Source of the DNA: Octopus vulgaris
Lineage: Eukaryota
Assembly (NCBI GenBank): GCA_951406725.2
Contig: OX597839.1
Location: 12,896,001-12,960,000, forward strand
Length of the DNA stretch: 64,000 bases
Direction of reading: 5' to 3'
How positions within the stretch are numbered: position 1 is the first letter of the stretch; every line of letters begins with the position of its first letter. The position numbers and the translations under genes are program-made. The notes under the pieces are model-generated. The model was not told where the DNA came from and ran no database searches. It was given only the letters and a program-made list of their open reading frames with translations. Of the stretch, positions 3,523 through 38,004 are shown piece by piece.

Positions 3523-3896
3523 CAAAGACAAAACTTTACCAGCCAACACTTATAAAACCAATTCAAAAACTGTAACGTCCAGCAGTAACTCTGATGCATT
3601 ACTCAGTAGTGAAGATGTAAAAGGAAACAATAATGCAGTACCCAAGCCTACAGGAGAAGGTAATGATAAAATAAGAGAAATACCCAAATCTAATGAAACT
3701 AACGCACTACCTCCACTTTGTAACAATTTCAGCAAGAATACTTGCATTGTGCTTCCTGTTAGAGGAGCTAGTAGCTCTTATGCTCAAGAAGCAGCATGCC
3801 TTCCTATTGAGGAATCTAAAACAAAATCCCTTTCCATTAATTCCCCAAACAACCAGCTAAACTCTGCAAATGTACCCCAAATGTTTCCACAAGGCT
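3523..3896 (+). CDS. Death-domain adaptor (IMD/RIP-like) paralogue 1, internal coding exon (low-complexity N-terminal region)
   Basis: Acceptor tttcatttccattccAG at 3521-3522 and donor GTAAG at 3897. Open frame KDKTLPANTYK...QMFPQG lies within ORF 3470-3931. Phase 2 start, phase 1 end. Homologous to 22788-23167. Confidence 0.85.
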
Positions 3897-5174
3897 GTAA
3901 GCACCATTCTTTTTTATATTTTCTTAGATAACCTCACCATCATTACTTTATTATCATTGCTTAATAATCATTACTCATTATGTTGCCATCACTACTTTCC
4001 CATCATTTCTTTATTATCATTACTTTCTCATTAAAAAAAAAAAATTTTATGTGCCCTTTTCAACCCTAGCCAGGTTCATGGGCCCGTTTTCCTAGTTTCT
4101 GTGGTGTATGTGTTCCCCCTAGCTGGATGGGATGCCAGTCCATTGCAGCCTTACTCAAGAAGCAGGAAGAAAGAGTGAGAGAAAGTTGGGGTAAAAGAGA
4201 ACAACAGGGGTCACTACCAGCCCTGCAGGAGCCTTGCATCCTTTTGTTTATTGAAGACCAGCAGTCACTCATGCATACCAGCCTCCCCTCTCCATGTCAG
4301 CGGAATTTTAACTCAGAACATGAAGACAGACAAAATACTGCTAAGCATTTTGCCCAACATGCTAATGGTTCTGTCAGCTCACCTCCTTAAAACTGTTTTA
4401 AATAATAATAATAATAATAATAATAATAATGTCTTGCAAACAACTTGCACATGCAAGTGCTACCAGTTAAAAGCTCCGTATACCAGAAGCTAGCAAGTGT
4501 ATGAGGTCATCAGGAGAGAATGCGTGCAATTTCAGGGCCTACCTTTCGACGGCATCAATGCACACCGGCCCCCCTGACTGATATGAGGCCCTGCTTGCTA
4601 GATCAGCTGGTTATGAAGTTAAACTCAATATACTTCTAGCCATCGCTCATCAATAATAATAATAATACTAATAATAATAATAATAATAATAATAATAATT
4701 ATAATAATAATAATTATAATGATAATAGTAATAAAGATGATGATGATTTCAAATTTTGGCTCAAGGCCAGCATTTTAGGTGGAAGGGATGAATTGATTAC
4801 ATTGACCATAGTGTTTAACTGGTACTTACTTCATCAACTCTGAAAGGATGAAAGGCAAAGTCATAATCAGCACACACACACAGGGGACAATTACCCCCTC
4901 TCCAATATATTAGGAAGTTTTAAATGAACATCTGTTGTCCTTAGGGGTAATTTTCGTTGGGGTGGGGGTGTAAATGTCTTACACTCAATATATACGACAG
5001 GCTTCTTTAAGTTTCCATCTATCAAATCCACTCAGTTGTGGTTTGCCTAAGGATATATTAGAAGACACTTGGTCCAAGATGTCACTTTGAGAAGCAAACT
5101 TTTTAACACACATGTATCTATGTATTATATTCTCAAAAATTTATGATCTTGATGCTATGTTATAAATTTTATAG

Positions 5175-5312
5175 TTATTCCTGCAACTATTAGAAATGGA
5201 AAGAATGTTGCAGTTGGGGGTGACTCTAATGTTACAAATAGGAAAACCGCAGAACCTGAGAAGAAAAAATGTGAGACTGATAAAGATGAAGTGAAATTCA
5301 GCAAGTATCTCA
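5175..5312 (+). CDS. Death-domain adaptor paralogue 1, coding exon with RHIM-like motif
   Basis: ttttatAG acceptor and GTAAGT donor; 138 nt, phase 1-1. Translates FIPATIRNGKNVAVGGDSNVTNRKTAEPEKKKCETDKDEVKFSKYL in frame with both neighbouring exons. Confidence 0.82.
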
Positions 5313-5487
5313 GTAAGTAAAAGTAGTTTCCATTTGTTTACTCTTTTTACTCTTTTACTTGTTTCAGTCATTTGATTGCAGATCAAAGCAAGATGAAATG
5401 TTTTGCTCAAGAATACATCAAAACACTTGATCCAGGAATGAAACCCACAATCTGGCAATTGTGAGTGGGAAACCCTATCACTGGACC

Positions 5488-36441: not shown

Positions 36442-36516
36442 AGTCTAATACAAAACTGACTCAGAAACGCCTCAACAAAATAGCCGTATACCTAGGGAAT
36501 AAATGGAAGTCTGTTG
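36442..36516 (+). CDS. Death-domain adaptor paralogue 2, coding exon 4 (Death domain start)
   Basis: AG/GT flanks; 75 nt. KSNTKLTQKRLNKIAVYLGNKWKSV(G). Confidence 0.88.
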
Positions 36517-37798
36517 GTAAGTATAAAATATACATTGCTTTAGATGTTTTGCTTCTATCATATCTTTATGTGTTTTTTACTTGCTTCAGTCATTATGTTG
36601 TTGCCATGCTGGGGCAGCACCTCAAAGAATTTTTAGTCGGATGAATCCAATACTTTATTTTCTTTGTTTTTAAAGCCCAGTGCTTATTCTATCAGTCACT
36701 TTTGCTGAACTGCTAAGTTACAGAGATGCAAACACACCAACCCTGGATGTTAAGCAGTGGTGGAAACATACACAGACACAAACATGCACACACATGTGTG
36801 ACAGGCTTCTTTCAGTTTCCATCTACCAAATCCACTCACAAGGTTTTGGTTGGGCTGGGGCTATAGTAGAAGACTCTTGGCCAAGGTCCCATGCAGTGGG
36901 AATGAACCTGGAATCATGCAGTTGGGAAGCAAATCTTCTTGCCACCCAGCCACCCCTATGCCTATCTAACTACAAAATAATGTTTAGTGAGTGCTACGAT
37001 ACTTAATGTGATGAAGAAAAAATTTCAGTTAAAGTTGTTCTTGCTAGGAGGAGAAGAAAAGAATCTTCACCCTTTTGCTACCATACTTTTGTTGGAACAC
37101 TTCTTTTGTTGTAATTAATGTTGAAAATAATGAATTTATGAATATAACTGTTTTGAGATTAAGCTAGTCATCATCATCATCATTTAACGTCCGCTTTCCA
37201 TGCTAGCATGGGTTGGACGATTTGACTGAGCGCTGGTGAACCAGATGGCTCTACCAGGCTCCAATCTTGATCTGGCAGAGTTTCTACAGCTGGATGCCCT
37301 TCCTAACACCAACCACTCCGAGAGTGTAGTATGTGCTTTTATGTGCCACCGGCACGGGGGCCAGTCAGGCGGTACTGGCAACGACCTCGCTCGAATCTTT
37401 TTACACATGCCACCGGCTCAGGTGCCAGTAAGGTGACGCTGGTAACGATTACACTCGAATGGTGCCTTTTATGTGCCACTGGCACTGAAGCCGGTTAGCT
37501 ACTCTGTCAGCGATCACACTCGTATGGTGCTCTTTGCCAGTCATTGAACTTGATTTTGATTTTGATTTAAATTAACATAAAATTTGGATTCAAGATTTTA
37601 ATTTAAATCACTTTAAAAACAAGAAATTTGTATCATAGAACCAAAGTCAGTATTAAAAATTTAGTGTTAACAGTTGACAACTGTTTCAGGCCACCATTTT
37701 TCCCTATCGTAAATTTTTTCATTATGTATCCCTTGAAATTTATAAATCATTTACTATTATTATTGTTGTTGTCAATGATATAATATTTTTATTTTCAG

Positions 37799-38004
37799 GT
37801 CGAAATTTAGACATTCAAGATGTTTTCCTGGGTAATATTCAATCTGACAACCCAGGGAATACTGAAGAACAGTGTTTTCAAATGTTGAAGAAATGGTTGG
37901 AAATATCTGAGACAGGGATGTGTACAACAGGCAAATTAGCTAAGGCTCTCATTGATGCTGAGTGTTATGGTGCGATTCCACATTTACCATTAGATGAGGA
38001 GTGA
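37799..38004 (+). CDS. Death-domain adaptor paralogue 2, terminal coding exon
   Basis: ttttcAG acceptor. GRNLDIQDVFLGNIQSDNPGNTEEQCFQMLKKWLEISETGMCTTGKLAKALIDAECYGAIPHLPLDEE*. Confidence 0.9.

Follow-up and report, generated by a model that had tools for sequence, protein, structure and literature searches.

Two Octopus vulgaris death-domain genes end a six-copy array of kinase-less, probably IMD-like adaptors

In insects, the immune adaptor IMD carries, in this order, a D/A caspase site whose cleavage exposes an IAP-binding motif, a cryptic RHIM (cRHIM) and a death domain (PMC9496462); its cleavage sites LEKD/A, LTTD/A and LETD/A are each followed by an IAP-binding motif, with one caspase site described per IMD (PMC6626034), and the cRHIM requires Gly at position 4 (PMC10268257; all three as far as the available portions of these papers go). 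A 2023 survey, in its available portions, states that no Imd adaptor has been found in molluscs though downstream parts are present, and reported the first spiralian Imd from a nemertean (PMC9835746). Partial texts of other sources describe kinase-bearing RIPK1 in the zebra mussel and other spiralians (PMC12119088) and no RIPK in Aplysia (PMC9334734), and the available portions of PMC8995041, PMC3308963, PMC7308585, PMC8917759, PMC12383823, PMC10815962 and PMC6447187 name no molluscan IMD, although PGRP-linked peptidoglycan sensing is covered for the squid-Vibrio symbiosis (PMC7308585). A cephalopod IMD was not found described in the open literature; subscription journals, which hold much of mollusc immunology, lay outside this scope and may contain an earlier mention. 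Here we describe two death-domain genes in a 64,000-nucleotide (nt) stretch of the Octopus vulgaris genome (contig OX597839.1, hereafter C26, positions 12,896,001 to 12,960,000; "the window", numbered from its first letter) and the array to which they belong.

An array of six kinase-less adaptor genes with a RIPK1-like death domain ends in the window with its final two members. The family probably works like insect IMD, and the two window copies probably act as partial versions with a tuning role. Six copies, labeled A to F in their order along C26 and all on one strand, were found in the window and the 200 kb upstream of it (264 kb in total). Copy A (C26:12,769,619-12,811,205) is intact and encodes 301 amino acids (aa); copy B carries a 1-nt frameshift in exon 2; copy C encodes 272 aa; copy D comprises exons 1 to 4 followed by a 100-N assembly gap; and copies E and F, both intact, encode 272 and 270 aa. 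The original prediction had called E and F (its copies 1 and 2) a tandem pair: both are real genes, but in the assembly they close a series of six, and four of the further paralogues that it had proposed to count upstream (A to D) lie within 200 kb. Its picture of a local expansion of cephalopod distribution, whose members carry different module sets, was borne out, whereas its view of the genes as hidden was not, as public annotation already contains them as "RIPK1-like". Public databases name the proteins either so or as uncharacterized, and it is the death domain that underlies the "RIPK1-like" name.

All elements of IMD (here two caspase-site/IAP-binding motifs, a cryptic RHIM and a death domain) were found together in copy A and its orthologues from O. 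bimaculoides and O. sinensis. Copy A contains DETD14/AVPL and SKTD92/AVPQ, and additionally AVPI after Lys; the O. bimaculoides protein XP_014771875 contains DEID/AVPL and NKTD/AVPQ; and a relative of 299 aa (P0007, ∼30% identical) has IKID/AMPV, PKTD/ANPI and LKPD/AMPI. The underlying D-A-x-P pattern was picked after the sequences had been viewed; its background rate was 6 in 44,753 residues, and composition-matched shuffles seldom reached the observed counts (two in A: P = 0.003; two in O. bimaculoides: P = 0.0015; one in F: P = 0.024; three in P0007: 0 of 20000 shuffles, P < 0.0001). Judged by sequence, a caspase site with an IAP-binding motif is present in A, D, F and the orthologues and lacking in E. 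Copy F retains IETD69/ALPV (22957..22980; all coordinates on the + strand unless stated), a predicted caspase-8-type site homologous to SKTD92/AVPQ of copy A, in which Leu at position 2 is a looser fit to the IAP-binding consensus. In copies E and C, Asn replaces the caspase-site Asp; the dead site of E, NETN/ALPP (3692..3715), aligns Asn at P1 with the Asp of A and F, and E has no D-A-x-P motif. A RHIM profile of 20 positions, built from six non-cephalopod IMD/RIPK proteins and assessed by shuffling, matched A, D, the O. bimaculoides protein, P0007 and an Argonauta relative (P = 0.002 each), as well as C (P = 0.006) and E (P = 0.02), but neither F (P = 0.92) nor two ankyrin-RING controls (P = 0.24 and 0.38). 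The two window genes are complementary, because E has lost the cleavable Asp and F the RHIM: E is a RHIM without a switch, F a switch without a RHIM. The reading of the window copies as IMD/RIP-like adaptors holds for a kinase-less, RIP-like death-domain build; the complete IMD motif set, however, is found in copy A and in neither window copy.

The C-terminal death domain proposed for these proteins was confirmed along several lines. Exon 5 alone fell below the Pfam Death cutoff (E = 0.007 to 0.009), and whole annotated paralogues scored 27 to 40 bits against a cutoff of 22.6. In sequence searches of the PDB, RIPK1 was the top match by a margin of 5 to 7 orders of magnitude (P0116: RIPK1 E = 9e-12 versus TRADD 2e-4 and FADD 4e-4; P0002: RIPK1 E = 2.7e-8 versus ankyrin 0.007), and AlphaFold modeled the O. 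bimaculoides orthologue (13-row alignment) as a helical bundle at residues 197 to 294, with predicted local distance difference test (pLDDT) values mostly above 90, preceded by a low-confidence, disordered N terminus. The predicted lack of an enzymatic domain was likewise upheld. In the 264 kb surveyed, a kinase profile run over 10,991 open stretches gave no match (best E = 0.95) and DED, CARD and ankyrin queries matched nothing, and we reject an extra upstream coding domain within this range. Pfam reported only Death above cutoff, with no second adaptor domain (DED, CARD or TIR) of the kind found in FADD, CRADD or MyD88. Protein size and kinase-less build fit IMD (200 to 300 aa, no enzymatic domain), and for want of a kinase domain the proteins do not qualify as RIPK1. 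Elsewhere in the genome, the kinase-bearing Owenia protein used as a query gave 34 matches, the best five of which resemble the MOS, TNNI3K, ROR, PLK4 and NEK kinases; a multi-exon RIPK1 could be missed by such a search. Genome searches with RIPK1 and IMD death domains were uninformative because the domain is split by an intron.

Set beside arthropod IMD (Drosophila, Tenebrio and Anabrus XP_067002410.2), the octopus-type proteins share a kinase-less length of 200 to 300 aa and the same order of elements: a disordered N terminus, a D/A site with IAP-binding motif, a cryptic RHIM and a C-terminal RIP-like death domain. They differ in having two or three caspase/IAP modules rather than one, in forming a tandem array in which each module is missing from some copies and kept in others, and in an overall identity to Anabrus IMD of 24 to 30%. 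With RIPK1 of vertebrates, Owenia and, according to the available part of PMC12119088, the zebra mussel, they share the best-matching PDB death domain and the order of a RHIM-like segment then death domain; RIPK1-type proteins also carry an Asp site after the kinase (LQLD/C, LQVD/A, and VKLD/A in Owenia). In contrast, the octopus genes have no kinase domain, either of their own or in the surrounding 264 kb, and their RHIM cores depart from (I/V)Q(I/V)G. Lineus ruber Imd, from a nemertean (PMC9835746), is likewise a spiralian death-domain protein placed in the IMD pathway, but the available portions of that paper base its placement on the death domain and report no RHIM detected in the transcriptome, whereas the cephalopod proteins, compared by description, show all motifs. 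The gastropod proteins Plakobranchus GFO02766.1 and Lymnaea CAL1532366.1 are also short and kinase-less, with a weak RHIM-like segment before the death domain (P = 0.08 and 0.01); they differ in lacking D-A-x-P, in their length of 164 to 174 aa and in forming a separate clade.

All nine predicted exons of E and F have AG acceptors and GT donors at their predicted positions. The five exons predicted for copy F, with GT-AG sites and matching phases throughout, do join into an open frame of 270 aa: exon 1, coding part at 19392..19417; exon 2, disordered and bearing the caspase/IAP module, at 22788..23167; exon 3, a decayed RHIM region without an xxxG core, at 30651..30776; exon 4, helix 1 of the death domain, at 36442..36516; and exon 5, the remaining death domain and stop, at 37799..38004, after which AATAAA/ATTAAA signals follow (38268-38661). 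The second copy predicted upstream, at 3523-9740, also withstood checking: the four window exons of E are open with AG/GT ends, and its exon 1 was found outside the window (C26:12,892,760-785, 3.2 kb upstream), giving 272 aa. Its exon 2 (3523..3896) encodes a disordered N-terminal region that matches residues 30 to 153 of CAI9741232.1 (paralogue C) at 100%; exon 3 (5175..5312) encodes the RHIM-like IRNGKN-VAVG-GDSNV (core 5207-5218) behind an unusual, shifted acceptor at 5175, the usual AG 9 nt downstream reading TG in E; exon 4 (8045..8119) encodes helix 1 of the death domain, the most variable part among copies; and exon 5 (9535..9740) encodes the remaining death domain and the stop codon. 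The N terminus is indeed rich in Ser, Asn and Thr, which make up 30 to 35% of the first 175 aa.

Transcript evidence came from four read runs placed on window positions 19000-27700; the runs are assembled contigs, presumed to be RNA, from which no expression level can be derived. Contigs from two of the four runs (X1 and X2) splice intron 1 of copy F at the GT..AG joint 19417>22788, the shorter side of the X2 contig being just 22 nt, and exon 2 was covered with 0 differences by contigs of X2 and X6. One X1 contig departs from the genome precisely at the exon 2 donor (23167) and continues for 212 letters, a match in length to exons 3 and 4 plus 11 nt. Exon 1 is covered without a break from 19092 or 19130 to the donor by contigs of X2, X10 and X1; these may stem from any of B to F, in which the 5' untranslated part (19092..19391; context ACCACCATGG) is near-identical. 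Because this transcribed exon contains an in-frame stop upstream of the ATG, the protein of these transcripts starts at 19392, and the RefSeq orthologue of copy A begins at the same ATG. The splice check on reads proposed earlier was positive for intron 1, the region at which reads were placed; introns 2 to 4 are predicted from splice signals, from the agreement between copies and from public gene models. Three outcomes could have overturned the original prediction, and none occurred: a spliced transcript was seen, the death domain held up, and no kinase, DED, CARD or ankyrin exon turned up nearby. GenBank CAI9741232.1 (P0002, Octopus vulgaris) matches paralogue C exactly from exon 2 onward; its Gln-rich first exon (of the 14084-14170 sequence type) is a likely misprediction, since it bypasses the exon 1 seen spliced in contigs. 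A short Gln-rich open frame of this kind, recurring between copies, lies at window 14045-14395 and serves the GenBank model as first exon. A possible alternative upstream exon of F, of 13 codons with a GT donor (14818..14856), is used in the O. sinensis RefSeq model XP_029651593.2; combined with the upstream stretch of exon 1, this would lengthen the protein by 27 aa and bring in no domain.

The array seems to have been reshuffled. Copy B combines exons 1 and 5 of C/E/F type with exons 2 to 4 of A type, and D has the same start; because B and D mix the two types in this way, they point to unequal crossing-over. Noncoding DNA differs by 1.1% between B and D and by 0.7% between C and E, and because these are so similar, B-C and D-E could be two haplotypes and some of the six copies may be products of assembly. 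Searches gave two loci each in O. sinensis (the adjacent LOC115224809 and 810) and O. bimaculoides, which the tree matches to the A and C/E/F types (95/78 for the C/E/F lineage); with orthologues of both types in both species, the split between A and C/E/F predates the species. Of the 44 coding variants that distinguish close copies, 42 were replacements and 2 were silent (P about 0.002, lower if transitions are weighted), with 24 replacement to 1 silent in the death domain alone. These variant sets were picked after viewing (exon 4 in all six copies; exon 5 in B, C, E and F; exon 1 in B to F; exon 3 in A, B and D and in C and E; exon 2 in A and D), and the divergent exons 2 and 3 of E and F were excluded. 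Between E and F, exons differ at 9.6% of sites versus 1.9% for noncoding DNA; exon divergence also exceeded noncoding divergence in C/F and C/E and marginally in B/D, but not in A/B or A/D. The ratio of nonsynonymous to synonymous substitution rates (dN/dS) was 0.82 in the N-terminal exons 2 and 3 of E and F and 0.6 to 0.7 between A and C, E or F. This pattern is suggestive of, though it does not prove, diversifying selection together with gene conversion of introns.

From this anatomy a mechanism can be proposed by analogy with IMD, all of whose steps beyond the motifs and domains are inferred. A putative receptor would nucleate the complete A-type form via the cryptic RHIM, and the death domain would recruit FADD and a caspase-8-like protease; a cut after Asp14 or Asp92 would create Ala-Val-Pro N termini that dock in the BIR groove of an IAP E3 ligase. 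The cleaved, IAP-bound protein would then be ubiquitinated, leading to TAK1/IKK/NF-kB activation. Copy E (and C) would join RHIM and death-domain assemblies without cleavage or IAP binding and so damp the signal; uncleavable IMD shows dominant-negative behavior. Copy F would be cut and bind IAP without RHIM polymerization, and might act via death-domain complexes or soak up IAP. The genome contains FADD (a separate gene, C26:2.42 Mb), multi-BIR IAP genes and PGRP exons. A search with one strict NF-kB consensus pattern found no site upstream of F or A. Candidate partners are the multi-BIR IAP genes, at least five in number, that lie clustered at C2:40.77-41.03 Mb.

A search of a library of 1.8 billion proteins returned 114 relatives, the nameable ones including Anabrus IMD, lungfish RIPK1, two Owenia kinase-RHIM-death-domain proteins, kinase-less gastropod proteins and octopus ankyrin-RING-death-domain proteins; P0007 as a query returned only itself. 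From about 125 extracted domains, 61, 34 and 27 rows were picked by hand for three death-domain trees (97 to 98 columns), with no TRADD row and MyD88 represented by one octopus row. The phylogeny called for by the original prediction could thus be built, but it neither supported nor rejected a link of the cephalopod adaptors to IMD, RIPK1, the gastropod proteins or FADD. Several results weigh against an IMD-like reading. The nearest death domains are those of the octopus ankyrin-RING family; the mixture-model tree places the cephalopod adaptors outside an 85/88 branch of vertebrate RIPK1 and insect IMD; approximately unbiased (AU) tests rejected none of five groupings, FADD included (P = 0.057 to 0.157; cephalopod plus IMD, 0.057); and the death-domain trees do not decide between IMD and RIPK1 orthology. 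The RHIM-like cores VFIG, VIIG, VAVG and LSIG have Gly at core position 4 but are noncanonical, Pfam RHIM matched none of the cephalopod proteins scanned, the partial Argonauta relative has no D-A-x-P, and ESM Atlas look-alikes, at scores of 0.88 to 0.89, provide a lead only. No RHIM-bearing receptor was identified, the PGRP exons present in the genome not having been examined for one, and none of the pairwise dN/dS tests was significant (older pairs, 0.6 to 0.8).

Three other explanations deserve weight. The adaptors might be caspase-activated IAP antagonists, amplifying death in the manner of Smac or Reaper rather than serving NF-kB: cleavage would release one to three Ala-Val-Pro-ended fragments to titrate IAPs, with the RHIM and death domain tying the protein to FADD/caspase-8 death complexes. 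The repetition of the module (two in A plus the AVPI after Lys, three in P0007, versus one site in IMD), the likeness of DETD to an effector-caspase site, the identity of AVPI with the Smac N terminus and the octopus IAP cluster on C2 all speak for this; yet after the last cut an IAP-binding end would remain on the RHIM and death domain, as in IMD, F keeps IETD, a caspase-8-type site, and antagonist and adaptor roles are not mutually exclusive. We consider such a function unlikely as the principal one. An explanation with a still smaller share of our belief is that only the A type works, E and F being relaxed duplicates that shed motifs and B-C versus D-E partly haplotypes placed in a row. The frameshift in B, the gap that ends D, the small noncoding differences within B/D and C/E, the two loci each in the O. 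sinensis and O. bimaculoides searches and the N-terminal dN/dS of E/F favor this view, but neither window copy is disrupted, contigs contain F-type exon 2 without differences and spliced, the C/E/F lineage is older than the species split, and the excess of exon over noncoding divergence in E/F and of replacements in the death domain argue otherwise.

The likeness to IMD might, finally, be superficial, with a death domain taken from the ankyrin-RING family and motifs that arose by chance in a low-complexity linker. The first tree does join the cephalopod adaptors and that family in one clade (97/88), which the other two trees leave open, and a phase-1 intron is common to both (17 of 18 exons checked, one of them in copy A), but the donor of the death domain could equally be the adaptor family. 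The motifs beat composition-matched shuffles and are kept, in IMD order, in three Octopus species and P0007, so that the D-A-x-P counts and RHIM profile have already weakened this explanation, which we regard as very improbable. On present evidence, the genes are better read as members of a genuine family of IMD-like adaptors, a judgment made from their sequences. The ankyrin-RING-death-domain proteins ("MIB2-like") form a large octopus family on C29, C30, C31 and C7 (L033, L034, L037-L049, L051, L053, L055) that has ankyrin repeats and a RING instead of a motif-bearing N terminus, and no RHIM (two tested); the exon that encodes their death domain agrees with adaptor exon 5 in boundary and phase, which suggests exon shuffling between the adaptors and a ubiquitin-ligase family.

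A cephalopod protein with every sequence hallmark of IMD is a concrete candidate for the adaptor reported missing from molluscs, and makes it testable whether cephalopods signal microbial detection via an IMD-like step. It also bears on the idea of IMD as a kinase-less RIPK1, because spiralians hold both kinase-bearing and kinase-less forms, and the natural deletion series within one array supplies ready-made mutants. A bolder proposal, which we offer tentatively and hold to be possible rather than probable, is that cephalopods own a true IMD-type amyloid/IAP adaptor, a kinase-less descendant of an ancestral RIPK1 with a multiplied caspase/IAP switch, whose Octopus array is fast diversifying into activators and module-deleted regulators and has its death-domain exons in common with the large family of ankyrin-RING ubiquitin ligases, which perhaps plugs into the same complexes. 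Among the kinase-RHIM-death-domain proteins (P0022 and P0063 from Owenia and the RIPK1-type P0075), an Asp-Ala site follows the kinase in P0022 (VKLD/AATE) and P0075 (LQVD/AVAG), where cleavage would leave an IMD-shaped fragment. Four short kinase-less death-domain proteins (P0021, P0041, P0111 and P0073, two of them named gastropod) form a clade of their own and have a weak RHIM-like segment and no caspase/IAP motif. At C14:75.54-75.60 Mb, three tandem single-exon genes (L036, L043 and L052) have a C-terminal death domain and an N terminus that we read as CARD-like.

Several repeats accompany the array. A 159-bp satellite (9.4 copies) and a 23-bp repeat lie at window 11565-13048 and 18203-18642, and a tandem array of ∼414-bp units, varying in length among copies, occupies upstream intron 1 of C and E; all three are possible sites of unequal crossing-over. 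At window 13501-13766, a 71% identical remnant of the 3' untranslated region of the array genes, recurring between copies, hints at an older, lost copy. Intron 2 of F contains, outside the protein, a broken retrotransposon of the long interspersed nuclear element (LINE) type with endonuclease and reverse-transcriptase fragments (23385..26404). On the minus strand at 54774-56741, an intact single-exon frame of about 646 codons has no Pfam match; in the ESM Atlas it resembles FAM43-like proteins with a PTB/PID domain (best score, 0.90).

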